Shown in pieces: positions 1-15,711 of a DNA stretch of 24,218 bases. The stretch covers positions 1 to 24,218 of IMG/VR virus record IMGVR_UViG_3300048851_000089, one strand, 5' to 3'. This DNA is from a virus. Its lineage: Duplodnaviria > Caudoviricetes. The first letter of the stretch is position 1. Every line of letters begins with the position of its first letter. The position numbers and the translations under genes are program-made. The notes under the pieces are model-generated. The model searched no databases and had not been told where the DNA came from. It worked only from the letters and a program-made list of their open reading frames with translations.

Positions 1-157
1 CCGCCGCGGCGATCAGCAAGCCGGCCTTCGCCGACGGGGTGCCGAGCCGCATCGACTTCTCCCGGCGATCATAGAGGCGCTGCCATTCCGGCGCCTCGCC
101 GCGCTCCGCCCATGCCTCGCCAAGGACTTGGTTGACCCACGTCCGTAGAAGGTTCGG
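1..157 (-). pseudogene. terL: 3' part of the interrupted terminase large subunit (GpA-like); runs off the left edge
   Basis: Minus strand reads PNLLRTWVNQVLGEAWAERGEAPEWQRLYDRREKSMRLGTPSAKAGLLIAAA, matching the GpA 'N..LGE.W' segment that precedes the nuclease motif. No ATG/GTG/TTG in frame between the upstream in-frame stop and the att core. Confidence 0.9.
143..157. repeat. Satellite att core, left copy (CCGTAGAAGGTTCGG)
   Basis: Identical to 11143-11157; encodes PNLLR of TerL on the minus strand. Confidence 0.95.
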
Positions 158-177
158 CAGTCGTAGGATTTCTGCGG

Positions 178-1362
178 CTACGCGGCTATTTGCGTCAACC
201 TTGCGTCAGGAATTGCAGCCAATTTCGCGCCGATCGCGAGAACCGCCGCGTGTCGATCCGCCGGTTTCGTGATGACGTGGGCATAGACACCCATCGTGAT
301 TCCGGGGTTTGCATGGCCCATAAGCCGCGACACGTCGGCGACCGCGAGCCCGTTATGCAGCCACCAACTCCCAGCGAAATGCCGCAGCGCGTGGAAGTGA
401 TGCGGATCGCCCGGGACCAGCACGCCCGCATCGCGCAGGAGATCATGCCATGCCCGCGTGATGTTCCGATTGTATAGCTTGCCGCCGCTCGACGTGGTGA
501 AGGCGAGGCCCCAAGGGTTCGACTTGGCGTGTCTCTCTAACCACTCCCGCAGCATCGCGACGACGTGAGCCGGCATGGGGACCACGCGCTCCCCGGCGAC
601 GGTTTTTGGCGCCTTGATCTCGTGCAGCGCGTTGAGGCTGTATCGTACCGTGATCGCCTCGCCGTCGAGGTCGATGCACGACACAGGCAAAGCGAGCAAT
701 TCGCCCACGCGAAGCCCGCAGCAAGCCGCGATATGAACCATGCACGCCAGCATTGCCGCGTACCGGACCTTGTGGTTCGGGCGCCTCTCAAGGACCGTCC
801 GCAATACCGCGCTGGCCTCGTCGAGCGTGAACTCTCGGATCCGCGGCTGTGGAGCGCCGCGGATGCCTCGCAGCGCCGCCGCAACCGGATTGGTGAGACA
901 ATAGCGATGTCGGTTCGCAAATCGCTCCACGGTCGCCAGGAAGCCTAGCACCGGACGCGCGACATGCGGCTTCATCGTCGCGGACAGCTTGTGATGCAGC
1001 TTATCGACGTCCGCCGCCCGCAGGTCTTTGAAAATGACGGTCCCGATCGTCGGCGCGATATGCAGCGACACGAACCTCGAGATTTTCATGACGTGCAGCC
1101 GCGACACCTCGCCGCGCGCCTCGCGCTTCCCGGCATCGGCGAGATACCGGGTGCAGACGTCGGCGACGGTCAGGCTGGCGGTGGGCCCGACCATCGTACC
1201 GTCCTCGGATTCGCGCTCCACCTTGCGTTTGAACGCGTCCGCCTCTTTCTTCGTCGCGAATTGCTTGGAGGGACGCCCGCCGTCGCCGTCGCTGTAGCGT
1301 ACCGTCCAAGCCTCTTTCTCGACGCCGTTGTACGTCCACCGGCGCTTGTGCACGCTCGCCAT
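178..1362 (-). CDS. int: Tyrosine recombinase/integrase of the satellite (394 aa)
   Basis: Catalytic set GLRVGE, APKT, HALRH, MGHA, GVYAH; N-terminal arm-binding-like region; GGAG RBS before the ATG at 1362. Confidence 0.95.
   Translation of the reverse strand: MASVHKRRWTYNGVEKEAWTVRYSDGDGGRPSKQFATKKEADAFKRKVERESEDGTMVGPTASLTVADVCTRYLADAGKREARGEVSRLHVMKISRFVSLHIAPTIGTVIFKDLRAADVDKLHHKLSATMKPHVARPVLGFLATVERFANRHRYCLTNPVAAALRGIRGAPQPRIREFTLDEASAVLRTVLERRPNHKVRYAAMLACMVHIAACCGLRVGELLALPVSCIDLDGEAITVRYSLNALHEIKAPKTVAGERVVPMPAHVVAMLREWLERHAKSNPWGLAFTTSSGGKLYNRNITRAWHDLLRDAGVLVPGDPHHFHALRHFAGSWWLHNGLAVADVSRLMGHANPGITMGVYAHVITKPADRHAAVLAIGAKLAAIPDARLTQIAA
191..208 (+). promoter_or_regulatory. Putative integrase arm-type sites, TGCGTCA x2
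   Basis: TGCGTCA at 191 and 202 (11-bp spacing); the same heptamer occurs three times near the other end. Confidence 0.65.
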
Positions 1363-1377
1363 AGTCTCTTCTCCATG

Positions 1378-1414
1378 TGAAAGGCCCCGCCGCGCCAATG
1401 TGGACGGGCGGGGC
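1378..1414 (-). terminator. Hairpin upstream of int, possible weak terminator or attenuator
   Basis: GCCCCGCC (1384-1391) / GGCGGGGC (1407-1414) stem followed by a short CTTTC on the minus strand. Confidence 0.35.
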
Positions 1415-1420
1415 AGGGTG

Positions 1421-1624
1421 TCAGGTTGTCGGGTGGCCCGGTGTGACAACATCTAGGTCGGCGCTGATCGTGATAAGAGAGTCCGCGATACCTTGCAGGG
1501 CAAAGCTCACGTCGTTCTCGATGTCCGTTGCCGTGAGGCTCTTGGCGATGATCTGCGCAATGGCGATGGTATGGTGCAGCCGCAGCTGTAGGGCGTTCAG
1601 CGCCGCGATGTCGTGGCGCGTCAT
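1421..1624 (-). CDS. Small helical hypothetical protein (67 aa)
   Basis: ATGA overlap with the stop of 1621..2202. Confidence 0.65.
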   Translation of the reverse strand: MTRHDIAALNALQLRLHHTIAIAQIIAKSLTATDIENDVSFALQGIADSLITISADLDVVTPGHPTT

Positions 1625-2202
1625 GCGTCGTTTCCGGGCAACAAGTAGAGCGGCCGCGTCTGGTCGATCTGCCACGCGGGCGGGGTGTTATCCTCGCGAT
1701 CGTCCGCGTCCCCGATGTCGCAGCCGGTGCGCTCGTCATGCTTCTGCCAGAATGCGCGCTGCATGACCGGGCCCGCGATCATGTGATCGTCGCCGGCCGC
1801 GCACCGGTCGCTGTCGTCGTCCTCGTCATCCTCGCGGTCGCTGGACCAGCCCGCGCGCATCGTATCGGGCTGATAGCCCTCGCACTCGATCCACGCGGCA
1901 CCTTCGCCGCGCTCCAGCAGCGTTCCGGCGGGATCATCGTCTTCAGCGTCCACCGGATCACCGGGGAGGCCATCAGGCGCGACGATGTCGAGGGCCGGAT
2001 CGTAGTCGACGCCGGGCGCGATCATCAGCACGCCCGCCCGGTCGTCGTCTTCAAGATCAGAATCGCCGTGCAGCTGGTCGAGCTTGTCGATAAGTGCGTC
2101 GACCGCAAGACCAATTTCGATGCTGTCGAGCATCTGCACGCCACGCATGAACTGCGCCAGGCGTCCGCTTCCATCAGGCGGAAAGGTGGTGTCGATATAC
2201 AT
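1621..2202 (-). CDS. Acidic Asp/Glu-rich hypothetical protein (193 aa)
   Basis: ORF directly downstream of the CI/C4-like RNA; runs such as DREDDEDDDSDR; coupled to the next gene. Confidence 0.75.
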   Translation of the reverse strand: MYIDTTFPPDGSGRLAQFMRGVQMLDSIEIGLAVDALIDKLDQLHGDSDLEDDDRAGVLMIAPGVDYDPALDIVAPDGLPGDPVDAEDDDPAGTLLERGEGAAWIECEGYQPDTMRAGWSSDREDDEDDDSDRCAAGDDHMIAGPVMQRAFWQKHDERTGCDIGDADDREDNTPPAWQIDQTRPLYLLPGNDA

Positions 2203-2208
2203 AGTTTC

Positions 2209-2463
2209 GTCTCACTGGTGACGGCTTTCTACGGCCGTTTTCAGGTGGCGGACCTGAAGCCGGGGGGTAGAAACCTGCCAGTGAGACAGGCCGGCAGCTT
2301 TTACACTTTCGTGCTGGACATGGCATACCGCCCCCGGCCATAAGGTGGCCAAGGCCGAGCCACGCCGCCAAGCGTGCTCTGTTCGGAGCCCCGCCAAGGG
2401 CTCCATTCGGCACCGATCCCTCGCCAAAGGGAAAGCTGCCTATCACTGGTCCGGGTTTCTACG
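2209..2463 (-). ncRNA. P4 CI / P1 C4-like antisense RNA switch (antisense module ~2257-2302, target copies 2209-2233 and 2443-2463)
   Basis: The minus-strand module folds as a GCCGG..CCGGC stem with an inner CCTG-[TCTCACTGG]-CAGG loop and single-stranded TTTCTAC. Complementary target pairs lie both upstream and downstream. Confidence 0.7.
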
Positions 2464-2649
2464 CCCACGGACACGATGCACCGATAATATACCTAACGCA
2501 AGCCGTCCCCCGCCAAGGGGACCGGCTCCGCGCGTGTGCCGCTATTCCGGCTCACCCGGTGGCGGTCGCCGAAATATAGTTGGTGCCTGCGCAGCCCGAT
2601 CGCGGGCGCGTTCCTTGACGTCGGAGGGGGGTTGGGACACCATCGCTGC

Positions 2650-3747
2650 ATGGACAGGATAGAATTAGGCAGGCGGCCGACAGGCAATAGATCTGCCGTT
2701 ACGCGGAATAGCGGCCTTGATGCTTTGCGCCTTTGCCTAGCAGTGTGGGTGGCGGTGTTTCACATTCACGCGCTACCGGGCGATACTTTGCCCGCAATGT
2801 ATCAGTGGTTTAGCCCGCCTGCTGCGGTGGCGACCTTCTTCACGATTAGCGGTTATCTCATACTCGGCGGCTTGGCCTCCCGGCCTGGCCTGAAAGCATA
2901 CGCGCAAAAGCGGCTTCTCCGGATCTACCCAGCTTATTTTATCGTCGTCATAGCAGCGGGGCTGGCCTTTGCCCCGACGAGTGCTGAGTTCTTTCGATAC
3001 GAAAGCTGGAACCTGATTTTCTTGAATTTCGTCGAGCCCGGATTTGCATCACTTCCGAACGGAGGCGCTGTAAATGGGTCCCTGTGGAGCATCAAAGTCG
3101 AGGTGGCGTTCTACGTAATCGCGCCGTTGCTCGCCATCGGTTGCCGGCGTTTCAGTCCGGCTCTGCTCCTCGGGCCCTTGGCTATTTGTTCCGCGGTCTT
3201 TGGCATCTTCTCGATGTCATATTCGGCTTCTCTAGTTCACCAGTTGCCGGCGCAGCTATGCTACTTCTGCATGGGCGGTCTGCTTTTCCACTACGGAAAG
3301 CAGTTGTCTCGATTCAAATACCCGATGATTGCAGCTGGCTTGGCGACCCTGCCGCTGGGCCCCTTCCTCGACCTTTTCGGTGTTGCCGCGATCGTGTTGG
3401 CCGTGATGTCAATCCGATGGGTGCCGTCGATGCCGATCGACCTTTCCTACGAAATCTATCTCGCCCATTATCCGGTTATTCAGGCGTTGACCGTTGCGGG
3501 CTTGGCGGGCTCAGCGCTCTTTACTTTTGGCACGTCGGTCGTGGCCGCGATCGGGCTGATCTCATCAATTGCGGCATCCTTTTGGCTGGCCAAGTATGCC
3601 CGGCGGCGCGCGGGCGGCAGCTTCCGCCGGGCAGCAATTAATGCCCTCCGATCTACCCGCGTCGACGGTCAGTTAATGAACCCGGCGGCGCGCATAGCGC
3701 CCTCGAGGGCCAGCACACGTTCCATCGTAGATTGCGCCTCAGCTTGA
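2650..3747 (+). CDS. Acyltransferase-3 family (OafA-like) membrane O-acetyltransferase
   Basis: Motifs LDALR, FFTISGYLI, KRLLRIYP, GSLWSIKVEVAFY, SYEIYLAH; many hydrophobic segments. Start uncertain (TTG at 2632 also in frame). Only + strand gene in the satellite. Confidence 0.9.
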   Translation: MDRIELGRRPTGNRSAVTRNSGLDALRLCLAVWVAVFHIHALPGDTLPAMYQWFSPPAAVATFFTISGYLILGGLASRPGLKAYAQKRLLRIYPAYFIVVIAAGLAFAPTSAEFFRYESWNLIFLNFVEPGFASLPNGGAVNGSLWSIKVEVAFYVIAPLLAIGCRRFSPALLLGPLAICSAVFGIFSMSYSASLVHQLPAQLCYFCMGGLLFHYGKQLSRFKYPMIAAGLATLPLGPFLDLFGVAAIVLAVMSIRWVPSMPIDLSYEIYLAHYPVIQALTVAGLAGSALFTFGTSVVAAIGLISSIAASFWLAKYARRRAGGSFRRAAINALRSTRVDGQLMNPAARIAPSRASTRSIVDCASA

Positions 3748-5870
3748 GCGTATTCGGTGGAGGCTGAAGCCGCGAACGCCCCCTTGTTCGGCGAGCCGGT
3801 TCCGATGGTCCAGCCCGCGTCCGCCACCGGGCTGAGATCGATCAACTGCACGAGCAGATCGACGCCAGTCGCGCCGGCGCTCGCATTGTAAACGTTGATC
3901 GTCACGGTCGCGCCGAGCGGAATCGGTGCGTTCGCAATGGTCTTCGTCAGGTCGACTGTGTCAATGATGGTGGCGTAATCGACGCTCGACGGGAGTGTCA
4001 GCGCGGCGCGGAACGCACCATTCACGGTGACGATAAAGGCCCAGCCGGCGCTGGAAGTGCCGGCCGCCAACCTCATGCGGCTGGTAATCCGGTACACGCC
4101 AGGGTTGATGTCGACGCCCATCACGAAATTGAGAGCGAAGCCCTGCTCGATCGGCCCCTCTGCCGGGATGTTTGCGGGGACAGTGGTGCCCTTGGTCAGG
4201 CGCATTACGTAGCCGCCATCGAGTGCGGCGTCCGAATACATCTCCTTGATGCCGCCGCCGCCTGGCGCCCCCGGCGTACCCCAATAGTTATAGGCGGTGC
4301 AGGTATGGGACAGTGCCATGGGCCCCGCCGCAGTAATTCTCATAGGCTGGAAGGGGTTCGGGGCGTTCCGAAGTGGGTTGCGCGTAGCATCAAGCAACAG
4401 AATACGGGGGTGTATCGGTAGGATAGCTTGGATGGATGCCGGCGGATCAACAATACGGAGGCGGTAGTCAAACTCTGAGCTGCCCATATTAGGATTGGCG
4501 GGCGGATCGATGATGGGGGCGTAATCATAATCAACCACCGTCGCGCGCGGCGAGTAGATCGTGTTCTCGCGCGCTAAAGGCGCCAGGTGGAAAAATGGCG
4601 CTTCGGTGCCGACCTGCGGGGAATGTATCTGGGCCCCGTAGCCGTTCAGGTAGAGGTGCGAGATTGAGCCATGGCTCTCCAGCAGCGTCCCCCTGGAAAT
4701 CGTAGTCTTTGATCCTTGGTCGTATACTGTGTACGCCGGTTCTCCCGAATTTGGATTTTCGCTGCCCCCCAAAAACGCGCTTTCGATGCGGTTGTTGTTG
4801 CCGAAAAAGCCAATACCTTCGATCATGACCGAACGCCCGTTGCCGGACATTCGGGCCGAGATTATGCAGTTGTCACAGCCCTTCAGCCAGAATCCGCGGC
4901 GCCAATTGTAGACGACCGTCGACTCGTCTGCGTAGATGTGGAACGTCTTGCATGCGCGGAAGAAGTCGCCGGTGCCGAGTCCTCCCCATGCATAGCAATT
5001 CAGAAAACGGACGTTCTGGAGAAAGCTGTAATCGTCGATCTCGGGGCTGTCGTGGGGGGTGTGCGTCTCGGTGTCGCCGAAATCGAACATTGTGCCGGCA
5101 GGGTCGGTGGCATCGAACGATATGCTGTCGAACGTCCAGTTTGCATATTCGCGGATGGCTGGAGTCCGGTAGCTCACTTTCCAGCACGTGTCGGAGCCTG
5201 TGTACCGCAGCCGGCTTTGCGTGATGTAGGGGTTGTCGCAATTTGCGCCTTCGCCGACAAAGGTGAGGCCGGGCGGCAAAGGATTGTCTTCATCGGCGAT
5301 CGAACGCGAGACGATCGACACGCCCCCAGGAACAATGACACGCCGCGTGCCGGTCGCACCGGCAAAGGCGATGGCATCCCGCCACGCTTGGGTGTCATCC
5401 GTGATCGCGTCGCCCTTGAAGCCAAAGCTGTCCAGCCGGATCGACCTCGATGTCCTATCAAGGATTCCCTGAACCGTTTCGCCGCCGCTCGTCCCGATCA
5501 TCGCCGCGCCGGCCGGCCCTTCATATGCTGCCTTGCTAGCGTACCGCGCCTGCTCGACGGCTTCGGAGCCCACCTTCTTGTACAGGATCGCATAGGTCGA
5601 CGTGCCATCGCCGACGACGGTGAAGAACCCGTTTGCCGCGGTCGCCGCCAGTCCGGCCGCCGTCGTCGGAAAAAGCGTCCCGGCCGCGGCGACCGCGCCG
5701 GACTCCGCCAGGGCCGCCGTCGCCGCACTCTGTGCCGACGCATCCGCGCTGTCGGCCGCGTCGCCCGCGCTTTTGGCGGCGCCCGCGGCAACGATCCCCG
5801 CCAGTTCGGCGCCGAAAACACGAACGACGGCCCGACCGTCGACAGCCCGCACGGATGCGTCAGATGCCAT
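3669..5870 (-). CDS. Tailspike/tail fibre with pectin-lyase-like beta-helix (733 aa)
   Basis: Ala-rich N-terminus with a GLAAT..GFFTV..LY particle-binding-type motif; FGFKGDAITDDTQAW beta-helix cap; C-terminal GWT.GTG...ALE.AMRAAGFI. AAGGA RBS before the ATG at 5870. Confidence 0.8.
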   Translation of the reverse strand: MASDASVRAVDGRAVVRVFGAELAGIVAAGAAKSAGDAADSADASAQSAATAALAESGAVAAAGTLFPTTAAGLAATAANGFFTVVGDGTSTYAILYKKVGSEAVEQARYASKAAYEGPAGAAMIGTSGGETVQGILDRTSRSIRLDSFGFKGDAITDDTQAWRDAIAFAGATGTRRVIVPGGVSIVSRSIADEDNPLPPGLTFVGEGANCDNPYITQSRLRYTGSDTCWKVSYRTPAIREYANWTFDSISFDATDPAGTMFDFGDTETHTPHDSPEIDDYSFLQNVRFLNCYAWGGLGTGDFFRACKTFHIYADESTVVYNWRRGFWLKGCDNCIISARMSGNGRSVMIEGIGFFGNNNRIESAFLGGSENPNSGEPAYTVYDQGSKTTISRGTLLESHGSISHLYLNGYGAQIHSPQVGTEAPFFHLAPLARENTIYSPRATVVDYDYAPIIDPPANPNMGSSEFDYRLRIVDPPASIQAILPIHPRILLLDATRNPLRNAPNPFQPMRITAAGPMALSHTCTAYNYWGTPGAPGGGGIKEMYSDAALDGGYVMRLTKGTTVPANIPAEGPIEQGFALNFVMGVDINPGVYRITSRMRLAAGTSSAGWAFIVTVNGAFRAALTLPSSVDYATIIDTVDLTKTIANAPIPLGATVTINVYNASAGATGVDLLVQLIDLSPVADAGWTIGTGSPNKGAFAASASTEYAQAEAQSTMERVLALEGAMRAAGFIN

Positions 5871-5872
5871 TA

Positions 5873-6136
5873 TCAATTCCTTCGGGTGGTGGTGGCGAAC
5901 GTGGCCCAGCCGGCGGGCTGCTCGCGTCCGTGTGTTTCGATGCTGTCGGCGATGGTGCGCAGCTGGTCGACGATCGTCGCGGGTTCGCCGCAGCGCTCCC
6001 AGACCCGACGAATGATCGCGTGCAGGATGCCCGAACATGCGTCGGGCTCAAAAATGCCCGAGCACGTCATGTCATCAATCCAAGCTTGGGTGCGGTCGGC
6101 CACCGCCATCATCTCGGCCGGGTCGCTCGTCTGCAT
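5873..6136 (-). CDS. Hypothetical protein (87 aa)
   Basis: AGGAG RBS before the ATG at 6136; stops 2 nt before the tailspike start. Confidence 0.65.
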   Translation of the reverse strand: MQTSDPAEMMAVADRTQAWIDDMTCSGIFEPDACSGILHAIIRRVWERCGEPATIVDQLRTIADSIETHGREQPAGWATFATTTRRN

Positions 6137-6284
6137 ATCCGCTCCTGTCATGGCTGCCGGCAGAGCGCTCCGCGGAATCGGGGCTCGCCGGCTTTCAGCC
6201 CGCCGTAGGCCGCCGCGCCGGGGTGATGCCGACTCCCGTCGAGCGCGGCCCCGGTCGATCGCGGATATCCGCGCTTCGCTTTCC

Positions 6285-8135
6285 TTAGACCGACGCGCCC
6301 GGGTTCATCACGGTGCCGCGATAGTCGACTAGGCCGGCGCCGATATCGATGCGGGCCTTGAACTGGACGCCGTCGACCTCGAACCCGACGCGGGTGTCGG
6401 TGAAGATCCCGCCTTGCCCTTCCAGGTCGCCGTATTCGAGAACGGGCCGGGTTGCCGGGTCGGAGAATAGCCGCCAGCTGAGCCCCAGCTGATAGGGATC
6501 GACCGACAGGGTGAGCTTGCCGGAGAACGGGTTTACATCGGCCACGGTACCCGCATTGACCACGGCGAGAACCTGCTCGGCGATGGTTTCGAGGGCGGGC
6601 CCGACCACGAGGTGCTTGGGCACTGCGTTGGCTGGCGTGCTGCCGTCGGCGTTCTTCTGCGTTCGGAGCAGCGCACGGGCAATCGAGAGGTTCGCGACAT
6701 TCAGCGTCCCCGCGACGACGATGTTGCCGTGGTCGGCATGATAGAGCGTCTTGCTATCGCTCGTCATCACTGCGCCGTTGCCGGCGATCATGCCGGAGAG
6801 CAGCGCCGACTGGGTTTCCGTCGCCGCGTTCACCCAGAACTGGGACAGCTGCAGGAACACGCCCAGGTCATCGTTCACCAGCGCCTGGCGGGTGATGTTC
6901 ATGATCCCGCCATAGGTCGACAGCTTGCTGCCGTTGCTGCCCTCGATCAGGTGGACCTGCTGGAATTCACCATTCTCAGGAACGTTGATCATACCCGCGG
7001 GGCCGTCCACGTTCAGATTGTAGCGGGTGCGGAAGTCGGTGTAATTCCGATTCCGCGCGATCGCCAGCAGCGGCGAGGGCAAAGCGCGGCGCGCTTCGGC
7101 GAGAACCCGCGTACCAGCGTTGCCGATCAGGGTCGCGAAGTCGCCCGCCGTGTGTGATCCATACCGGAGAACCTGGTTGACGACTGCCTGCCGACTGGCG
7201 AAGCGCACGGGCTCCCCGTTCCGCTCGAGCAGCGCGCGGGCCATGTCGACCACGCTCGCATCACGATACTCGCGCGCGCCCTCGCTCGGCTCGGTGCCGC
7301 TCATTCGGGCGTAGAGCGCGTCGGCGAAATTGTCGCGCAGCTGGCGGCTGTCGCCGCCCGGTCCGCCGCGCGACTGGCGGGGGTCGATCGATCCGAGCGA
7401 ACGATGCGCGACCAGCGCCGCCTCGATGCGTTCGTCGAGCTCGCGGCGCGACAGGGGTTCTTCGGCGTGCATGGCGAGCAGGTCGCGCTCGAACGAACGG
7501 GGCAGGTCGTCGGAGCGGTTGCAGCGGTCGCGGATGTAATCGACCGTGACGCCGCCGGCACGGTTGCGAGGCGCGGGGGTGGGGTTCGGTGCGTCAATGA
7601 TGTCGGGCATGGTCGTTCCTTTCGTTCGGACTTGTGCGGCCGCGTCGAAGGGGACGACGACCATCGACAACTCGACGGGCTCCCAATCGATCGCGTGCAT
7701 GACGGGGCGCTCTCCTGCCGTCTCGGTGCGCTCGTAGGTGTGGACGTTGTAGCCGACGGACAGGCTGCGAATGTGCCCGTCGATGATCTTGGCGACCGTA
7801 TCGGCAACGTCGGGCGTCTTGGCGAAGCGGACGCGGGCGATACCCTGCCCGTTCTCGATCCGCGCCGTCCCCGGCATCACGGAGCCCAGCACCGCGGCGA
7901 GCGATCGATCCTGATGGCTATCGATCAGGCACGCGCCCGCGTTGAGCCGGTCGAGGCGGACGTGCGCGGGGTCCATGCTCAGCGATTCGATGTAGTAGCC
8001 GCCATCCAGCCAATCGAACCGGGTGCCTTCGGCGCCTACCGACCAAACGACCTCGATCGAATTGTCGGACGGGTCGAACGATGCCGGCTGGAAAGTCGCC
8101 GCGCGGTTCGTGGTGACGGTGATGGGGTCTGCCAT
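6285..8135 (-). CDS. Prohead protease-major capsid protein fusion (616 aa)
   Basis: N-terminal HK97-type protease motifs (LIDSH, RSLSVGY, WEPVELSMVVVP); C-terminal Mu-gpT-like capsid motifs (HTAGDF, ITRQALVNDDLG, LYHADHGN, GFEVDGVQFKARIDIGAGLVDYRG). Confidence 0.9.
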   Translation of the reverse strand: MADPITVTTNRAATFQPASFDPSDNSIEVVWSVGAEGTRFDWLDGGYYIESLSMDPAHVRLDRLNAGACLIDSHQDRSLAAVLGSVMPGTARIENGQGIARVRFAKTPDVADTVAKIIDGHIRSLSVGYNVHTYERTETAGERPVMHAIDWEPVELSMVVVPFDAAAQVRTKGTTMPDIIDAPNPTPAPRNRAGGVTVDYIRDRCNRSDDLPRSFERDLLAMHAEEPLSRRELDERIEAALVAHRSLGSIDPRQSRGGPGGDSRQLRDNFADALYARMSGTEPSEGAREYRDASVVDMARALLERNGEPVRFASRQAVVNQVLRYGSHTAGDFATLIGNAGTRVLAEARRALPSPLLAIARNRNYTDFRTRYNLNVDGPAGMINVPENGEFQQVHLIEGSNGSKLSTYGGIMNITRQALVNDDLGVFLQLSQFWVNAATETQSALLSGMIAGNGAVMTSDSKTLYHADHGNIVVAGTLNVANLSIARALLRTQKNADGSTPANAVPKHLVVGPALETIAEQVLAVVNAGTVADVNPFSGKLTLSVDPYQLGLSWRLFSDPATRPVLEYGDLEGQGGIFTDTRVGFEVDGVQFKARIDIGAGLVDYRGTVMNPGASV

Positions 8136-8226
8136 GATCCTTCTATGCGGCCCGATCGATGCGAGGCGTAGCGGCGTGCTTGGGCTTAGGTATGCTTGTT
8201 GCGGCGTAGGGGTGCACGCCCTTGCA

Positions 8227-8433
8227 TCACGTCCCGATCGTTGAGCCTAAAACCGGCTCGACGTGCATGTTCATGACAAGCCGCCGGACGTCCTCGCTCG
8301 AATAGCGCACGCGCCCGCCGGGGGTGATCGTGTAGCCGATTGCGCCCTTTTTCCGCCAGCGGCGCAGCGTGTCCGGGTGCACCTTCAGCGCGCGTGCGGC
8401 CTGCGGCTCGGTCATGCCAAGGGGGTCACTCAT
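8227..8433 (-). CDS. MerR/Xis-like HTH DNA-binding protein (68 aa)
   Basis: MTEPQAARALKVHPDTLRRWRKKGAI...TPGGRVRY; ATGA overlap with the mini-TerS stop. Confidence 0.8.
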   Translation of the reverse strand: MSDPLGMTEPQAARALKVHPDTLRRWRKKGAIGYTITPGGRVRYSSEDVRRLVMNMHVEPVLGSTIGT

Positions 8434-8633
8434 TCGCCGGACTCGCCCGGCGCGCGAAGCACTACCCAGGCTGCGACGAACTCCCCCAAGGTCGCCCCAT
8501 CGGCTGGCAGCTGGCCGCGTGATCGTAGGACGCCGATCCATCGGCCCGAGACGCCGAAGAGGGCGCCGACTTGCGCGAGGGTGGGGCGGATCCGCGAAAG
8601 GTCACCTTCGGCCGCGCTCTTCTTCTTCGACAT
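8430..8633 (-). CDS. Mini-TerS: terminase small subunit DNA-binding domain only (67 aa), candidate packaging redirector
   Basis: 25/40 identical residues to the N-terminus of helper TerS (12131..12628) in a manual ungapped alignment; sits directly downstream of the satellite cos. Confidence 0.8.
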   Translation of the reverse strand: MSKKKSAAEGDLSRIRPTLAQVGALFGVSGRWIGVLRSRGQLPADGATLGEFVAAWVVLRAPGESGE

Positions 8634-8691
8634 AAGACTTCTTCCCATGCAGACTGCGAAAAAATGGCGGAAAACCGCTGAAAATCGGGAC

Positions 8692-8777
8692 AGGGAGGAA
8701 GAACCTAGGGCATTTCTGCGCCTAGCGATCTTTTGCGCCTTTGCCCCCCTCATTACACTCAAGCGGGGGAAGGACCC
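8692..8777 (-). other. Satellite cos site (cosQ/cosN-like)
   Basis: 86-bp ungapped homology to 12679-12764; minus strand GGGTCCT...GGGGGGCAAAGGCGCA..GATCGCTAGGC. Confidence 0.85.
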
Positions 8778-8838
8778 GACAGCCCGACCGATCAATGCGC
8801 CACCGCGCAACAATCGGTCGCGGCGTCGGTCCGGCCGG

Positions 8839-9084
8839 TCAGGCGCGGCCCCCGGCATGCGCGCTCCACCCCACGACGGTGGGCTCGGTCAGCGCGGCGA
8901 GCGCGGCGGGTGCGAGCGCGCGGCCGACCTCGCGTTCGATGATGATCGTTGCGGCCGTGATCAGCGCCGCCGCCTTCTCAGTCGGGTCGGTCGTGATGAA
9001 GTCGGCAAGCGCCAGCGCGGCGCGCGTGTTCGCGGCGTTGCGCTCGGCAATCTCTTGATCATCGGTCAGCTGGGCTTCGTGCAC
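8839..9084 (-). CDS. Hypothetical protein (81 aa)
   Basis: AGGAG RBS before the GTG at 9084; helical, Ala-rich. Confidence 0.65.
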   Translation of the reverse strand: MHEAQLTDDQEIAERNAANTRAALALADFITTDPTEKAAALITAATIIIEREVGRALAPAALAALTEPTVVGWSAHAGGRA

Positions 9085-9102
9085 GGTATGTTCTCCTAGT
9101 TG

Positions 9103-9223
9103 TGTCCCGCGGGACAGTTGGGGGACGTCCCGAGGGACGGACGCGAGACCGTCACGTGACGTCACGTGTGACGCTCGGTGACGATGCGTGACGCATGCGC
9201 GTGGCAGTGCTCCGGCGATGCTC
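9103..9223. repeat. Intergenic cassette of phased short repeats and palindromes (GGGAC, GTGACG and TGCTC families)
   Basis: GGGAC at 9111/9122/9134; GTGACG at 9156/9168/9178/9188; TGCTC at 9208/9219; palindromes TGTCCCGCGGGACA and GTCACGTGAC. Confidence 0.75.
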
Positions 9224-9229
9224 GCAGCA

Positions 9230-9958
9230 TCACCGGCCGGCGCCCAGCTCGGTCAGGCGCGCGATACCCTTGGGGGTCAGCAGCGCATGGTTGACCAGCT
9301 TGGCCGGCTTGTGCGGCCCGCGGTCGAGGCGGTGGACCTTGTGCTCTATCAAGCCCTGATCGATCTTCGCCTGATACCCGACCAGCCCGTCATTGCCTCG
9401 ATAGAGCCAGGCGTGTTCTTCCAGCCAGTCGAACAGGCGACCGGGCTTCACGCCCATTGCCTTCGCCGCGTGCGTGACGGCAAGCGAGCCTTGCGCCTCT
9501 GTCAGCTGTGCCAGCGCCGCCGCCTGCGGCTCAAGGGCGGCGATGCGCTGGTCTGCGGCGAGGGCGCGGCCCGTGTGATCGATCAGCAGCCTGTGGAGCA
9601 CCGCGGGGTCGCTCAGGTCGAGCGCAGGCGCGGGGCGGCCGTAGCTGCCCGTCTGCCGGATGGACGGCAGGACCTCCCGCGTTACCCATTTCGTGAACCG
9701 CTTGGCCGCGGCCTTCCGACTGCGCAGTGCCAGCTTGTAGAGCCCGCTCTCGTCGATGACGGTCGCCTCCTGACGGCCGCCAAGGGTGTCGGTAATGACG
9801 ACATCCTTCTCGTCGTCGTCGAGCCGGGTCGCGGCGTCGCGCGGGTTCGCGATGTCGAGCACGGCACAGACGTCGTTGAGCGAGAACCAATGGGCGCCGT
9901 CGCGCTGCAAGACGCGCACCGGGTGGTCGTCGAACTCGAAAGGGACGATCGCGTTCAT
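9230..9958 (-). CDS. Phage antirepressor, Bro-N plus ANT/KilAC domains (242 aa)
   Basis: WFSLNDVCAVL, IDESGLYKLALRSRKAAAKRFTKWVTREVLPSIRQTGSY, C-terminal AAKAMG..LFDWL..WLY...LTPKGIARL; GGAG RBS before the ATG at 9958. Confidence 0.92.
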   Translation of the reverse strand: MNAIVPFEFDDHPVRVLQRDGAHWFSLNDVCAVLDIANPRDAATRLDDDEKDVVITDTLGGRQEATVIDESGLYKLALRSRKAAAKRFTKWVTREVLPSIRQTGSYGRPAPALDLSDPAVLHRLLIDHTGRALAADQRIAALEPQAAALAQLTEAQGSLAVTHAAKAMGVKPGRLFDWLEEHAWLYRGNDGLVGYQAKIDQGLIEHKVHRLDRGPHKPAKLVNHALLTPKGIARLTELGAGR

Positions 9959-9991
9959 GGTCATCTCCATGCGTGTTGCCGCCGCGCCGGA

Positions 9992-10200
9992 GGGGTGCAG
10001 CGGGTGCGGGGCGCAGGGACTGCGGGGCGCAGCCGGTGCGGGGGTCGGTAGGAATTTACCGGGGCCAGGGGTGCCAGTGTGACGGGCGTCACCGTGGCGG
10101 GGTGTCAGGCTGGCGGGGGGTCCAGCAGGTTGACCGGTCAAGGGCGTGGACCGGTCCAGCGCGTTGACTGGTCCGGTGGATCGGGTGGACGTCCACCGGA
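9992..10200. repeat. Non-coding cassette of consecutive, different iteron-like tandem arrays
   Basis: 3x YGCA-N5-TGC-GGGG (9996-10044); 3x YGYCA-N3-TGRC-GGG (10072-10120); 3x GGTCMA-N5-TKGACY (10119-10169); TCCGGTGGA/TCCACCGGA-type repeats (10172-10200). Confidence 0.85.
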
Positions 10201-10227
10201 CTATTTTGGAGGGAGCCAAATAATTCA

Positions 10228-10362
10228 CGGGTCCGATTTTCGTACCGCACGGGCCCGATTTTCGAGCCAACCCGCTATGCGTCGGGCCCGATTTTCGAGC
10301 CCGTCTCCTCGTATGGGTGTCAGGCGGGTCGGGCCCGATTACCGGGCCACATATATATCTAC
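10228..10362. repeat. Putative satellite replication origin: four 19-bp iterons plus an AT-rich tract
   Basis: CGGGYCCGATTTTCGWRCC-like copies at 10228, 10250, 10283 and a more diverged one at 10330, then ACATATATATCTAC; adjacent to the rep-like gene. Confidence 0.75.
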
Positions 10363-10377
10363 CAAGGGATACCCGTT

Positions 10378-10755
10378 CTAAGCTGGTCGCCAGTCCCGGT
10401 ACTCGTGCGTTGCCGCCGCCCGCTCTGTCGGGTGAAACGTCAGGCGCCAGCTGGTCGCGAGCTTCACCTTGACCGTGAAGGCGCCGCGCTGTGTTGCGGC
10501 GATGAACCCGTGCGCCTCCAATTCATCGAAGGCGGCGGCGGCAGCCCCCCGGCGGACCCCAATCGCATCCGCGGCGGCGCGCTCGGCAAGGAACAGGTCG
10601 CCGTTATTCGTGCCGTTGTGCAGGCGGGCGAGGTAGAGCAGCAGCTTCGCCGCGGTGCCGCCCAGGTCGATCCATGCCGGACTATCGAGGATCCGGTGAT
10701 CGAACATCACGAACGGCGGGCAGCGGCTGCGGCCTTTCCGAGTGACGTTCGCCAT
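10378..10755 (-). CDS. Winged-helix protein, putative satellite replication initiator (125 aa)
   Basis: ILDSPAWIDL...LLLYLARLHNGTNNGDL...AFDELEAHGFI; located between Xis and the iterons. Confidence 0.7.
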   Translation of the reverse strand: MANVTRKGRSRCPPFVMFDHRILDSPAWIDLGGTAAKLLLYLARLHNGTNNGDLFLAERAAADAIGVRRGAAAAAFDELEAHGFIAATQRGAFTVKVKLATSWRLTFHPTERAAATHEYRDWRPA

Positions 10756-10757
10756 GG

Positions 10758-10970
10758 CTATTCGACGCGCGCCGCGGCGGCTTCCTGTGCGCGGAAGTGC
10801 TTCGCCAGCGACGATCGCAGCGCGCACACGGTAGCGCCTACCTTGAACGTCGGCAGGTCGCCCTTGTCATGCAAATGATAGACCTGCTTCCGGCTCAACT
10901 GAAGGTGAGCTGCGATGGCAGCGACCCCATAGAGCAGGTCGGCCGGGTTGGCGTTCGTTGCGTCACTCAT
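10758..10970 (-). CDS. Excisionase/AlpA-like HTH protein (70 aa)
   Basis: LLYGVAAIAAHLQLSRKQVYHLHDKGDLPTFKVG; first gene inside the right att. Confidence 0.8.
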   Translation of the reverse strand: MSDATNANPADLLYGVAAIAAHLQLSRKQVYHLHDKGDLPTFKVGATVCALRSSLAKHFRAQEAAAARVE

Positions 10971-10988
10971 GCGTCAGTCCTTGCGTCA
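10959..10988 (+). promoter_or_regulatory. Putative integrase arm-type sites, TGCGTCA x3
   Basis: TGCGTCA at 10959, 10970 and 10982; same motif as 191/202. Confidence 0.65.
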
Positions 10989-12168
10989 CCGAGCCGCCGG
11001 GACGATCCCAGAAACGGCGGATTTCTGCGGTTCTAGTGGGGAGCGCCGGGGAAAGGCGCCGGCGAGAAAAAGGGCGCCGGAGCGCCCAGTTTTTGGCAGT
11101 TTTCTGGGGGTTTGAACCGCCTTCGCGTTCATTCACCTTAACCCGTAGAAGGTTCGGATCCTTGCGGACCTCCATGAACTCGCGCGCGATCTCCAGCCAC
11201 GCGGCGCCCGGGTGCTGGCTGTACGCCGCCCAGATGTGGAACGAGCGATGCCTGGGGAACGCGATCGGGTTGTGTGCGCGCCACTCGCCGTTCTCGTCCA
11301 TCCACGGCTTTTCAGCCTCATCGATCTCGCATCCGTTTTCGCACTGATACCAGGCGCGGGTCGGATGCTCCTTCGGCGCCCAGCGGATGCCGGCGCCGGT
11401 GCCGTCGCCGAACACCAGCGTCTGGGACAAGCCGCAATGCGGGCAGGGGACGTAACGGAATTCCTGGCTGCCCTGTTCGAACAGGGCGTCGATCCGACTG
11501 AAGCCTTTCACCTTCGGGGTCGAACCCGCAGCGCTGAAGCGCCGCGGCGATGTCAGGTTGCGCTTGAACGCGAGGCGGGCGGGATCGCCTTCCTCCTTCG
11601 TCGCCCAGGGGTAGCCGTCGCATTCCTCAAGGAACACGTCGTCCGCAGTGACGCGGCGAAACTCCTTCGGACTGTTCGCGCCCTTGATCTGGATCCAGCC
11701 GCCCTTGTAGCGTTTGGCCCTGATCTGGTTGTCGGCGTGCCGCGGCTTGAACGTCGCGACCGACCGGACGACCGGCCACTGCAGCACCGGGTCGAGATCG
11801 TCGCGGCTGAACTTCTCCGCATCGTCGATCGTCGGCTGGTAGATCAGCGTTCGCGCAGGGTCGAACTTGATGCGCCAGGCGACGAAGCACTGCAGGATCG
11901 TAGAGTAGCCAATGCGGCTGCTCTTCCTGACCGAAAGCTGAGACGTCTCCGGATCGGTGAACGCGTCGGCGATGTCGGCCTGAAACGGGAATGGGCGGAT
12001 GCGCGCGCCGTCATCCGACCTCGCATGCTCGACCATGAACTTCGAAAGGGGCGGCCGCTCGCGCGGCCGGCACGCGGCAAGCCAGCCTGCGGCAAGCGTT
12101 ACACCGTGCGCCCCGGGGGCGCGGTACGGCTCAGGCGCCGCCTTCGTCTTCGGGCTCGCCCTCATCAA
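10963..12168 (-). CDS. terL: Terminase large subunit (lambda GpA family), 5' part interrupted at 11143; last 59 codons are satellite-derived
   Basis: Walker A VRKSSRIGYS, Walker B VFLEECD, GSTP, YVPCPHCG, SFHIWAAYS; overlaps the terS stop. Start at 12168 or 12165. Confidence 0.93.
   Translation of the reverse strand: MMRASPKTKAAPEPYRAPGAHGVTLAAGWLAACRPRERPPLSKFMVEHARSDDGARIRPFPFQADIADAFTDPETSQLSVRKSSRIGYSTILQCFVAWRIKFDPARTLIYQPTIDDAEKFSRDDLDPVLQWPVVRSVATFKPRHADNQIRAKRYKGGWIQIKGANSPKEFRRVTADDVFLEECDGYPWATKEEGDPARLAFKRNLTSPRRFSAAGSTPKVKGFSRIDALFEQGSQEFRYVPCPHCGLSQTLVFGDGTGAGIRWAPKEHPTRAWYQCENGCEIDEAEKPWMDENGEWRAHNPIAFPRHRSFHIWAAYSQHPGAAWLEIAREFMEVRKDPNLLRVKVNEREGGSNPQKTAKNWALRRPFSRRRLSPALPTRTAEIRRFWDRPGGSVTQGLTHE
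11143..11157. repeat. Satellite att core, right copy
   Basis: Identical to 143-157, exactly 11,000 bp away. Confidence 0.95.
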
Positions 12169-12628
12169 AGCCCCCGCCGCGCGCCTCTTCGATCCGGGCC
12201 ATGCTCAAGTCCGTGAGGACGTTGTTGATCTCGGCGTCGACCCGCGCGCGCAGCTTCGTGTCACCTTTGGCAACCCGAGCACCGACCTGTTGCAGCTGGG
12301 CGACGATCATGACGATCACGCCGGCGCCGGCGGCGACCATGTCAGGAAGCGAAGCCAGTTCCTTGCGACGCTCGGCGTTGTCCATCGCCTTCGCATCGGC
12401 CTGCTCTTTGGCAAGCCGCGCCTGCTGCTGTTCCTTGTCGAGCGAATCCGGATCAACGTCGTCGACGCCGTACTTCGTCTGCGCCCATGCTTCGATGTTC
12501 TCGAGCAGCGATGCGCCGTCCGTCGGCAGGGCGCCCTTCGATCGGAGTTCGCCGATCCATCGGCTTGAGCAGCCGAACAGCGCGGCGAGCTGGGGCCGGG
12601 TCGGCTCATCGAGGTCGATTTGCGCCAC
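12131..12628 (-). CDS. terS: Terminase small subunit (Nu1-like, 165 aa)
   Basis: N-terminal wHTH and the coiled coil QQQARLAKEQADAKAMDNAERRKEL; lies between cos and terL. Confidence 0.9.
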   Translation of the reverse strand: MAQIDLDEPTRPQLAALFGCSSRWIGELRSKGALPTDGASLLENIEAWAQTKYGVDDVDPDSLDKEQQQARLAKEQADAKAMDNAERRKELASLPDMVAAGAGVIVMIVAQLQQVGARVAKGDTKLRARVDAEINNVLTDLSMARIEEARGGGFDEGEPEDEGGA

Positions 12629-12678
12629 TTCCCTGCTCCATCTCGCGAAAGCCGCAGAAAACCGCCGGAAATGGCACG

Positions 12679-12764
12679 AGGGAGGAAGAACTATAGTGCA
12701 TCTCGTGCCTAGCGATCTTCTGCGCCTTTGCCCCCCGTATTACCTTGGATGCCGGGAAGGACCC
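12679..12764 (-). other. Helper cos site (cosQ-cosN)
   Basis: Minus strand GGGTCCT-TCCCGGCATCCAAGGT-AATACG-GGGGGCAAAGG-CGCAGAAGATCGCTA parallels lambda GGGTCCT(cosQ)...TTACG-GGGCGGCGACCT-CGCGGGTTTTCGCTA; upstream of terS. Confidence 0.85.
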
Positions 12765-12823
12765 AAGAGCAGGGGTGCCAACCCTGTTCGCGACCGCTAG
12801 GCTGGACCGGAGGAGACATTGCG

Positions 12824-13006
12824 ATGTACGTCATGAACAGAGATGCGCTCGACAAAGTCGAAGACGTGCGCCGCGGGCTTCATGTGGCAATGACCGCGCT
12901 GATCACGAGCAGGGATTATGCCGAAGCGGAATATATCATGAAGCAGATGGACGACCGTCTAGGCGTGCTCATCGCCCAGACACAGGTCGTAGCTCACCGC
13001 TCATAG
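12824..13006 (+). CDS. Small moron-like hypothetical protein (60 aa)
   Basis: GGAGGAG RBS; opposite strand to the flanking phage genes. Confidence 0.6.
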   Translation: MYVMNRDALDKVEDVRRGLHVAMTALITSRDYAEAEYIMKQMDDRLGVLIAQTQVVAHRS

Positions 13007-13084
13007 CTTCGCACTTCCCACCCTCGCGTTCACTGCGGAGGTTGGGGGCAACGGGGAGGACACCTCTGCGCTCGTTGCGGCTGC

Positions 13085-13627: not shown

Positions 13628-14057
13628 GTTGCGTCCACCTTCTCTCGTGCCATGCCCGTGACTGAATCTGATCGCCGAACCGCCAGAACCGCGTGTCACG
13701 CTCGTGCTGACCGGCGCGGACCAGCGTCCAGCACTCGCGCTGCGGCAGTTCGACGATTCGGTGGATGTGCGTCGCGTCGACGCGGTACGTCTCGCCCGGC
13801 AGCCGGTGCGCAAGCGTCCCGCGCCAGCCTTCCTCGCCGATCGTGAACACCTCCTCGACATAACCGCCCGCCAGGACAGTCGTCTCGAACCTCCACGGAT
13901 GATCGTGCGGATCGACGTGCGGCTCCTCGCGCGTGAATCGGTGGAGCGCCCTGCCGTCGCTCAGGTGATATTTGATGAACGCGGGCGACATCCGCTCAGC
14001 ACGGATGATCTCAGTGCCGACCGGGACGTGCTCGCGTGCAGCCTTCGGTATTCTCAT
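13620..14057 (-). CDS. Cupin-like phage protein (HDHPW family, 145 aa)
   Basis: PHDHPWRFETTVLAGGYVE...HRIV...CWTL. Confidence 0.75.
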   Translation of the reverse strand: MRIPKAAREHVPVGTEIIRAERMSPAFIKYHLSDGRALHRFTREEPHVDPHDHPWRFETTVLAGGYVEEVFTIGEEGWRGTLAHRLPGETYRVDATHIHRIVELPQRECWTLVRAGQHERDTRFWRFGDQIQSRAWHERRWTQHG

Positions 14058-14083
14058 GCTCGCCTCGTCATGTGGATAAGTTG

Positions 14084-14115: not shown

Positions 14116-14748
14116 TCATGCCGCCTTGGCCTGATCGGTCTCCGGCTCGCCCGGGTCGATGGCGAACAGGCGGATATAGTCGGCGCGCGTCGGCTTCCGG
14201 CTCGGCGCGCTGCTGGCGCCTTCCACCTTGGTGGGCCGCGCGGGCTCGCCAGCTGGTCGTTGGTCGGAATAGCGACCAACCTTGAACTGCTTGCAGATGG
14301 CGTCGAGCTCGGCTGGGGTCGCATACTCCTGACCTGGCGCCGGGAGGGCGGGGGCTGCCGCCTCCGCGGGCGGCCGTGCCAGCCGCTTGCGGCGCTCCCA
14401 AGCATCGCCCACTTCAGCCATGATGGCGGGCACGATCTTCGCGGGATGATCAGCTTTCAGCATCGCGGCCGCGGCGCCGCGCTGAAGGAGTCCGATCGGC
14501 ATGGCGTCCAGGGCGAGGCGAGCGGCCTCGAACCAAGTATCTTGGCTGTCCTCATCCATACCAACCGGCGCCACCAGTTGGAGGCAGGGCAGCAGGGTCG
14601 CGATGAACTGATCATCCGACGCTGGCTTCAGATCCCGATAATCCGCGGCGAGCCCTAAAGCGCTCGGCAGCATCGACGGTTCGACCTTGGCCACTCCGCG
14701 ACTGCCGGTTTCCGCCCAAACGTCCAGTTCCTGATCCTGATTGCCCAT
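14116..14748 (-). CDS. Replication-region protein, possible helicase loader (lambda P position)
   Basis: Follows and overlaps rep; helical core WFEAARLAL..LLQRG...HPAKIVPAI. Function inferred from position only. Confidence 0.6.
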   Translation of the reverse strand: MGNQDQELDVWAETGSRGVAKVEPSMLPSALGLAADYRDLKPASDDQFIATLLPCLQLVAPVGMDEDSQDTWFEAARLALDAMPIGLLQRGAAAAMLKADHPAKIVPAIMAEVGDAWERRKRLARPPAEAAAPALPAPGQEYATPAELDAICKQFKVGRYSDQRPAGEPARPTKVEGASSAPSRKPTRADYIRLFAIDPGEPETDQAKAA

Positions 14749-15391
14749 CGTCTTTGTCCTGCTTGATTACCCAGTTTGCCCACGCTGCTTGCCAGTCCAG
14801 CTTCCGGCCTACGCCGGAGCGATCGTCGGCGTTCGCGGCCCAATTCCGAAAGCTCTCCAAGGCAGCGCGCGACCACTCGATGCCGCGCCGATCGGCGACC
14901 TCGCGGGCGACGGTCCCGTCGGCGAAGCGCTGATGCTTCCAGTCAGCGGGCAACCGAAAAGGCTTGGCCTTGGGCTCGGATGCGCGCTCGCGCTTCGGAG
15001 AAGGCGAAGCCTTCGGAGAAGTGATGTGTCCTGACGTATTGTCCGCAGCCGCTGCGGGGGTCCGCGTCGCTGGCTGCGGGGGTGCAATCGCTGCGGGGGC
15101 GCGACGCTTGCGGGGCGCAGTATTTACGGGGGTGCAATCGCTGCGGGGGTGCAGGGTGTAGGTGCAGCCTTTGCCGGGCCGCTCGTGGCGGGTCAGGTGG
15201 CCCGCCGCCGCCATCGACTTGATAGCGCCTTGGATCGTTCGCTCCGACTTCCGCGTCTTCTTCACGAGCTGCGCGATCGACGGCCAGCACTCGCCATCGT
15301 CGTTCGACCAGTCGGCGAGCGCCAGCAGGATCAGCATCTCGCTGTCCGGAAGGTCGAGCCCCCACACCTGGGTCATGATGCGGATGCTCAT
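14612..15391 (-). CDS. Phage replication initiator (N-terminal wHTH, DnaT-like C-terminus; 259 aa)
   Basis: LILLALADWSNDDGECWPSIAQL...SERTIQ; RLPADW...ESFRNW...DWQAAWANW; iterons in the linker. Confidence 0.85.
   Translation of the reverse strand: MSIRIMTQVWGLDLPDSEMLILLALADWSNDDGECWPSIAQLVKKTRKSERTIQGAIKSMAAAGHLTRHERPGKGCTYTLHPRSDCTPVNTAPRKRRAPAAIAPPQPATRTPAAAADNTSGHITSPKASPSPKRERASEPKAKPFRLPADWKHQRFADGTVAREVADRRGIEWSRAALESFRNWAANADDRSGVGRKLDWQAAWANWVIKQDKDDGQSGSGTGRLGGNRQSRSGQGRTVDAAERFRARRGLSGSEASVG
15044..15153. repeat. Helper replication-origin iterons inside rep
   Basis: YGCA-N5-TGC-GGGG(G) and near-matches at 15044, 15083, 15100, 15116 and 15133 (16-17 bp period), positioned as in lambda O-type origins. 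Confidence 0.85.
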
Positions 15392-15711
15392 TTGCCATGG
15401 ACTCGGGGCCGCGCCGGCGTCAGGCTTTCGACCTGACAAGAGGGGGCACCATGGTGATAGGTATAATTACTAAGCCGCTGACCGCCGCGTATGCGTGGGC
15501 GAAAGGCTCGGTGGACGTCAGGCTTGAGAATTATGCTCTGAAGCGAAAGCTTTCTGTCGCCTACGAGCGGATTAGCCTCCTTGAGGCCGAGGCGAAAAAA
15601 GCGAGCTCTGAAATCGAGCGCTTGAGCAAGGAGGCCGATGCCGCGCGCACTGGCCTGAATCGACGCCCGCTTGACACGAGCAGGCTGACCCGAGGTGTTG
15701 TGTGAGATCAC
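15388..15711 (-). CDS. Possible bridging ORF (107 aa), antisense to 15451..15705
   Basis: GTGA overlap with the upstream stop and ATGA overlap with the rep start. Confidence 0.35.
   Translation of the reverse strand: MISHNTSGQPARVKRASIQASARGIGLLAQALDFRARFFRLGLKEANPLVGDRKLSLQSIILKPDVHRAFRPRIRGGQRLSNYTYHHGAPSCQVESLTPARPRVHGK
15451..15705 (+). CDS. Coiled-coil hypothetical protein (84 aa), antisense moron
   Basis: GAGGGGG RBS; heptad pattern LKRKLSVAYERISLLEAEAKKASSEIERL. Confidence 0.55.
   Translation: MVIGIITKPLTAAYAWAKGSVDVRLENYALKRKLSVAYERISLLEAEAKKASSEIERLSKEADAARTGLNRRPLDTSRLTRGVV

Follow-up and report, generated by a model that had tools for sequence, protein, structure and literature searches.

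The window (the whole stretch of 24,218 nucleotides that was analysed) is a prophage fragment. Besides terS and a terL gene that a satellite interrupts (Table 1), it encodes an integrase, an O-like initiator and a NusG-like antiterminator, and it has a repressor region. The satellite is flanked by a 15-bp direct repeat (143-157 and 11143-11157), with a half of terL on either side (KDPNLLR versus TWVNQVLGEAW), and its excision at this repeat would restore a gpA-type terL. An empty site is represented by one contig of run X1 that is without 149-11150; X1 may be the sample from which the window came, and the contig may derive from a related phage. Relatives of the satellite are likewise integrated in late genes, namely terL (L003, G752, L199 and G454b) or a tail gene (L001); L199 and G454b also directly follow a piece of a gpA-type terL, and the exact att repeat of the window was not found there.

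The AlpA-like, rep, Bro, major capsid protein, integrase and terL genes are all on the minus strand, the satellite being co-oriented with the late gene that it interrupts. In minus-strand order, the satellite comprises an AlpA-like gene, a winged helix-turn-helix (wHTH) Rep, an AT-rich stretch, four iterons of its own, a cassette of repeat blocks, the Bro-N/ANT gene, a second cassette, a copy of the region upstream of the helper terS, a protease-capsid fusion, a tailspike-like gene, an acyltransferase and the integrase. Capsid-forming PICIs are defined by possession of a portal, capsid, head-tail connectors and both terminase subunits of their own; the satellite has only the protease-capsid fusion of this set, with no portal, terL or connector matches. 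Among the satellite ORFs scanned there was no match to a primase or helicase, and the integrase had no tblastn match among GenBank phages at E<=1e-30. To judge from its position, the copy of the terS-upstream region is likely a cos mimic; a short ORF that follows it (8430-8700) looks by eye like the start of terS.

The satellite Rep weakly matched O-like and DnaD-like initiators among the PHROGs, at E values between 1e-4 and 6e-4, and wHTH regulators of the PDB by sequence (best E 6e-4); it has 5318 relatives at E<=0.001 and no tblastn match among plasmids. Its predicted iterons are kept beside the same Rep in five related elements (L001, L003, L004, L007 and L008), and all lie on one side of the AT-rich stretch, which sets this origin apart from the Gram-negative PICI origin as defined in the accessible text of PMC6092414. 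Six relatives (G488, G706, L198, L199, L202 and G454b) have a second type of Rep (type B) of about 100 aa, which has no BLAST similarity to the Rep of the window and is accompanied by different iterons of its own. Type B is an O-like wHTH cut off at the first iteron, 46-50% identical to the full-length phage initiators L134 and L138. Both types stop right after the wHTH (125 aa in the window, 98 aa in G488).

Table 1. Features of the satellite and its helper in the window (positions in nucleotides).
Feature	Position	Strand	Remarks
Helper-embedded satellite, 11.0 kb	143..11157	-	interrupts helper gpA-type terminase gene (terL)
Satellite tyrosine integrase	178..1362	-	PF00589
Fused protease-major capsid protein (MCP)	6285..8135	-	phrog_4523, E 5e-149
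Copy of helper 12654-12770 (terS-upstream region), ~80% identity	8667..8783		predicted cos-region mimic
Second cassette: GTCAC/GTGAC and GTCCC/GGGAC units	9103..9200	-	after Bro gene
Bro-N + KilAC antirepressor-like (Bro-N/ANT) gene	9230..9958	-	PF02498, PF03374; directly downstream of cassette
Block 1 (F1): 3 x YGCA-N5-TGCG, period 16	9992..10045	-	iteron family of resident helper initiator
Single dyad CGGTA-N6-TACCG	10046..10061		best exact match to rep regions 9 nt
Block 2 (F2): 3 x GYCA-N3-TGRC, period 15-16	10068..10120	-	
Block 3 (F3): 3 x GGTCMA-N5-TKGACY, period 17	10119..10169		
Block 4 (F4): TCCGGTGGA / TCCACCGGA units, 2-3 overlapping	10171..10201		
Single AT-rich dyad TATTTTGG-N6-CCAAATA	10202..10222		
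Satellite's own predicted origin	10228..10364	-	four 19-bp iterons (10228, 10250, 10283, 10330) and AT-rich stretch 10348-10364
Satellite Rep-like protein, 125 aa	10378..10755	-	winged helix only, no C-terminal domain; fold from sequence matches
AlpA/excisionase-like HTH_17 gene	10758..10970	-	first gene of satellite
Resident helper O-like initiator	14612..15394	-	phrog_391, E 1e-22; PF13730; iteron array at about 15040-15153

Repeat blocks and their counterparts in phage initiator genes

The sequence-only reading of this DNA had described 9992-10226 as back-to-back iteron triplets of different specificities, and the motifs do stand at the positions that it gave. Its three-copy design applies to blocks 1-3, which are triplets, but not to block 4 (two to three overlapping units) or to 10046-10061 and 10202-10222, which are single dyads. 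The interval is indeed made of arrays, but it leaves out the satellite's own iterons, which begin directly after it (10228-10348), and the second cassette. Three stretches, beginning at 10129 (period 17), 9994 (period 16) and 10083 (period 16), show the strongest periodicity (13-24 bp) anywhere in the 24-kb window; the helper's own origin (start 15071) comes fourth. Dinucleotide shuffling of 9992-10226 produced one array in 28 of 1000 rounds, and two or three arrays in none.

The cassette had also been described as non-coding, and this was borne out: the open frame upstream of the Bro start varies among five relatives (564 nt in the window, 195 in L008, 30 in L003, 297 in L004 and 336 in L001) and has a codon score of -11.6, versus +62.4 for the Bro gene, on which grounds a conserved protein was rejected. 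A known structured RNA was likewise rejected, with no Rfam match in the window at gathering thresholds.

To obtain phage initiator genes for comparison, searches were run with the helper Rep and with the C-terminal domain of that protein, without use of the cassette. Reps with the C-terminal domain of the helper carry differing N-termini and differing internal repeats. The Sphingomonas-type prophage initiators (14612-15394 of the window and L101-L147) have a common C-terminal domain and swapped N-terminal domains and internal iterons, the latter of at least 10 repeat families.

Block 1 was said to match the origin of the resident helper, and of the five occurrences of GG-YGCA-N5-TGCR-GG in the window, three are in block 1 and two in the helper rep gene; the family of block 1 (F1) is also found in the reps L101, L119, L123 and L146. 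The remaining blocks were supposed to match the initiators of other phages, and their absence from phage origins had been named as a point that would count against the proposal. Counterparts were found for blocks 2 (L139), 3 (L106/L110) and 4 (L144/L148/L150), but not for the two single dyads, which have no counterpart array among the collected rep regions. The block 2 unit is carried by a rep that was found independently of the cassette (L139), and 18 of the 20 IMG/VR matches to its two-unit pattern, some of which are near-duplicates, lie in O-like wHTH rep genes. The block 3 unit forms arrays of 4-5 copies within the prophage reps L106 and L110 (the same as L058), and block 3 shares 16 identical nt with L110. 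Block 4 resembles the rep L144, and two of the three IMG/VR matches to its pattern lie in initiator genes (L148 and L150); it is the weakest of the four assigned blocks, because one of its initiator matches looks distant in lineage. The second cassette has counterparts in the reps L143, L147 and L113 and in the rep of L196, and its F6/F6b clusters had no equal match in 169 kb of background.

In an unbiased test, motifs were derived automatically from 36 phage rep regions and scanned over each satellite locus. With the helper rep masked, the best two-site cluster fell inside the cassettes of the window, which make up 1.4% of its length, for 12 of the 36 motifs (not independent, because many belong to the F1/F1b families). 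The corresponding numbers were 13 in L001, 6 in L003, 4 in L004, 8 in L008, where the cassettes amount to 15% of a short contig, and 2 in the cassette-less G752 element; column-shuffled motifs gave means of 0.4-0.8 and a maximum of 3 in 25 rounds. A test of shared 9-mers was weaker (6 of 36). When the cassette was compared with GenBank phages by blastn, three records appeared at E 0.3, which is not meaningful, and a single-protein viral scan found none of 18 candidates.

The blocks hold 1-4 copies each, versus 2-6 in phage origins; the longest exact matches of cassette units to rep regions are 9-16 nt, with no flanking rep sequence, and the units are packed end to end. The lowest GC in 20 nt is 0.35-0.55 in cassettes versus 0.25-0.55 in phage origins, ranges that place the cassettes towards higher GC but overlap and separate the groups poorly. 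Unlike the lambda-type origin array, which lies inside the initiator gene, the blocks are intergenic and non-coding; they match the cognate iterons of initiators outside the origins of those initiators, as befits a decoy or incompatibility locus. The sequence comparisons support the cassette as a library of helper-origin iterons, for four of its six blocks and across a family of elements. By analogy with the arrangement of lambda O and its iterons, it is very probable that helper O-like initiators bind the matching blocks.

Distribution and conservation of the cassettes

Alignment scans with Rep and AlpA yielded 13 elements with a rep-to-Bro interval (the window, L008, L003, L004, L001, L201, G752, L199, G488, G706, L198, L202 and G454b). 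AlpA matches without the rep-origin-Bro layout (L195, L196, L200, G454a and G476) were left out before counting, as was L007, the sequence of which stops before the cassette. With motifs built from rep-gene sites against a 169-kb background, for families picked by hand after the cassettes had been seen, two to six iteron families precede the Bro gene in 8/13 elements, one in 2/13 and none in 3/13. The elements that score no family are L198, which has block-2-like units by eye, and the two that are cassette-less (G752 and G454b), the rep-Bro intervals of which score weakly for the phage family F9. A pattern of the Bro gene start, which is kept among relatives, retrieved no new cassette: its nine viral matches were L179 and L172, elements that had already been collected, and unrelated sequences, and only G752 was relevant among its six matches in genomes. 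No multi-family cluster was found among the distant Rep relatives L002, L005, L006, L009-L016 and L018-L050.

F1 is present in 9/13 elements and, counted with F1b, is the family nearest to the Bro start in eight of these nine, ending ~10-35 nt before the ribosome-binding site. The order of blocks is F4-F3-F2-F1 in the window, F5-F2-F1 in L004, F5-F6-F7-F2-F1-F8 in L001, and F3-F6-F1-F1b in L199, F3 being absent from its close relative G488. Blocks are spread over up to three separate spacers: they stand after the Bro gene at the matching place in L008, G488, L199 and G706, and before rep in L201. Of what the sequence-only reading had asked of relatives, the gain, loss and swapping of blocks is evident; co-variation with the resident helper is not established, because the resident family was matched in only three of the five cassette-bearing elements for which a resident initiator was found (F1 in the window, F5 in L001 and F1b in G488, but not F9 in G706 or F11 in L003).

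The same blocks accompany the second type of own Rep (6/13 elements), and their distance and side relative to the satellite's own AT-rich stretch differ between the two types. Binding of all blocks by the satellite's own Rep, the possibility that had been set against a library, is rejected as a general explanation, since the same blocks accompany own Reps that are unrelated by BLAST and have differing iterons.

Of the 250 cassette positions aligned between the window and L008, 32 differ, versus about 50% of fourfold-type third positions (28/55 in rep, 46/86 in Bro); between L003 and L004 the cassette differs at 27/267 positions, versus 15/73 (rep) and 38/146 (Bro) of such third positions. This low divergence of the cassette indicates constraint or recent exchange. 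Two observations speak against reading this strictly: positions conserved in phages are only slightly better kept (33/314 differ, versus 77/494 for others, p=0.045), and in L008 decay has affected parts of blocks 1 and 3. The dyad at 10046-10061 is retained in L008 with one change inside it. Both arms of the dyad at 10202-10222 differ jointly in L008 (about 440-462) from those of the window, and because they change together its symmetry looks selected.

Possible roles of the cassette

To our knowledge, known satellite interference works through proteins, and known cis mimics of satellites concern packaging or transfer. In plasmids, extra iterons silence initiation by handcuffing, as exemplified by incA of P1 and incC of F. 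The reading ranked first here, if tentatively, is that the cassette is a decoy of multiple specificities that may bind and stall (handcuff) the helper initiator. The non-coding array sets side by side, in one to three copies apiece, origin repeats that belong to several prophage initiators unrelated to one another. While the satellite is embedded, the cassette, 5 kb from the helper origin, might loop to it through bound initiator, by analogy with plasmids; once the satellite had excised and amplified, the cassette would titrate the initiator, theta replication of the helper would fall, and the shared terminase and capsids would go to the satellite. Several blocks would cover several helpers, because prophages exchange the DNA-binding N-terminus of Rep and, along with it, the internal iterons. 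A position-tolerant role also fits the scattering of blocks over spacers, where they are not fixed relative to the satellite's own AT-rich stretch, and the lower number of copies per block than in real origins likewise speaks for a decoy. Against a decoy, the cassette presents fewer sites, as one integrated copy, than the helper origin itself; the match to the resident initiator in only three of five elements, the cassette-less elements and the decay in L008 also tell against it. As described in PMC3349717, lambda iterons carried on a plasmid prevent the initiation of theta replication in the absence of the AT-rich region, but oop transcription is also required; the oop RNA of this precedent has no known counterpart in the satellite, which also counts against a decoy.

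The satellite Rep has no C-terminal part to engage the helicase loader, and hence the cassette might instead dock the full-length helper initiator beside the satellite origin, where helper machinery would start satellite replication. This is less likely than a decoy, although the two are not mutually exclusive. Truncation of both own-Rep types right after the wHTH, the failure of the ORF scan of the satellite to reveal a primase or helicase, the abutting of the cassette on the satellite's own iterons in the lineage of the window, and the weak F9 score of the rep-Bro interval in both cassette-less elements speak for docking, which would also parallel the oriT mimics, the gain from which is direct in the account of PMC4993578. 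However, about 300 bp separate the most constant block from the satellite's own AT-rich stretch, type-B elements show the opposite geometry, and some blocks lie past the Bro gene or, in L201, ahead of rep, whereas lambda-type iterons normally adjoin their AT-rich region (PMC3349717, accessible text). The proximity of F1 (with F1b) to the Bro start in eight of nine elements suggests another role, that helper initiator bound just upstream of Bro-N/ANT switches transcription and times satellite expression to helper replication. This is rather improbable: no sigma-70-type promoter was found in 8000-11200 (0 found, 0.4 expected, by a scan that may miss alphaproteobacterial promoters), another block and a small ORF separate F1 from the Bro start in L001, blocks 150-200 bp upstream could hardly act alike on one promoter, and in a co-oriented operon any spacer precedes a gene.

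By eye, a unit of the L199 cassette (about 1420-1440) is nearly identical to an own iteron of the G752 satellite (L047, about 1870-1890, oriented), and because of this resemblance the cassettes may also target rival satellites. The same likeness, together with the derivation of type-B Reps from a phage O-like family (46-50% identity to L134 and L138), could mean that the blocks are sites stacked to serve different variants of the initiator of the satellite itself, or the initiators of rival satellites, and not those of helpers. We regard this as very unlikely, since F1-F5 match arrays inside full-length phage initiator genes and the type-B own iterons that were examined are unlike blocks 1-4. 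Equally improbable are neutral relics, i.e., functionless fragments of helper origins captured by recombination and now decaying: capture of helper DNA by embedded satellites is documented (PMC10111431, accessible text), blocks 1 and 3 decay in L008 and cassette-less elements exist, but only the iteron units are kept, end to end and with no rep sequence around them (exact matches of 9-16 nt at the longest), their divergence is a quarter of the synonymous rate, and the arrangement recurs in two Rep lineages.

Whether as a broad-spectrum sponge for initiators or as a docking rail for them, the cassette is probably a protein-free and expandable anti-helper system, with blocks acquired from the phages met, which records past helpers and sets the range of those throttled or exploited. 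A cassette of foreign replication iterons, if truly such, would engage many helpers by means of DNA alone. With a putative cognate initiator named for each assigned block, pairwise predictions follow (the helper rep, L139, L110/L106, L144/L148 and the helper of L001). The cassettes would amount to a natural code of initiator-iteron pairs and a readable record of past helpers, and to a possible reason why prophages keep swapping the module that determines initiator specificity.

Relation to known systems, and cargo genes

The helper-embedded PICIs (HE-PICI) described by Tommasini et al. (2023; PMC10111431, main text) likewise lie inside and co-oriented with a prophage late gene between att repeats, and have an AlpA/HTH_17 gene, a Bro-network gene, an origin, a capsid gene and a cos-like copy. 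Their zones are ordered Integration, Bro, Replication and Late, whereas the order here is AlpA, Rep-ori, Bro and late genes, with the integrase at the far end; their replication zone is primase-based, whereas the satellite is alphaproteobacterial, without primase and with a wHTH-only Rep (PMC10111431). HE-PICI integrases belong to the 11capE clade, and that main text, in which the word 'iteron' does not occur, describes no helper-origin cassette (PMC10111431). The satellite works like an HE-PICI, but is not filed as a member because its gene order and replication module differ; it would extend helper-embedded satellites to a primase-less alphaproteobacterial family.

The closest parallels to the cassette come from other elements. 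Staphylococcal oriT mimics (pWBG749 and pSK41 families) are cis mimics collected by a non-autonomous element, each for a different specificity of helper protein, but they are origins of conjugative transfer of about 126 bp each, as described in PMC4993578, whereas the satellite has blocks of 15-50 bp of replication iterons. The lambda inhibition phenotype (oop and ori iterons on a plasmid) resembles a decoy in that extra iterons without an AT-rich region bind an initiator and silence initiation (PMC3349717, accessible text). Lambda inhibition and plasmid handcuffing concern one specificity and are self-directed or engineered, whereas several foreign specificities are found here in a natural parasite. 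Delta- and betasatellites of begomoviruses contain sequence identical to the Rep-binding iteron of the helper and are promiscuous among helpers, but these are rolling-circle plant elements with no Rep of their own and a single iteron or iteron-like motifs, and the iteron was dispensable for trans-replication in a test cited there (PMC4756297, accessible text). In the conflict between PLE origins and Odn of ICP1, iteron specificity is also the ground contested and replication modules are swapped, but the direction is reversed, with the phage copying the iteron-binding domain of the satellite (according to the accessible text of PMC8263062), whereas here the satellite copies phage iterons. PICI origins (PMC6092414) and PIME origins (10.64898/2026.01.12.698999) hold only the element's own iterons as described in the accessible text of these sources. 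The sequence-only reading had held a system of this kind to be new to satellites, and a full-text literature search, with subscription papers mostly outside its reach, found no description, for any phage satellite, of a cassette that combines helper replication iterons of multiple specificities.

The satellite also has cargo (2536-5870), consisting of an O-acetyltransferase on the opposite strand and the tailspike-like gene, which has a pectate-lyase-like domain, and an acidic ORF of no known family near the integrase (1803-1841, within the ORF at 1621-2202). In G454 (C6, about 58400-68300) two AlpA-like genes are 9.6 kb apart, one directly before an integrase; they probably mark both ends of a single embedded element, or else a tandem. 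L003 has low-GC cargo after its Bro gene (11944-16950) with ORFs of 407, 225 and 713 aa, and the 407-aa ORF gives weak ATPase-like PHROG matches, so that this cargo possibly consists of defence genes.
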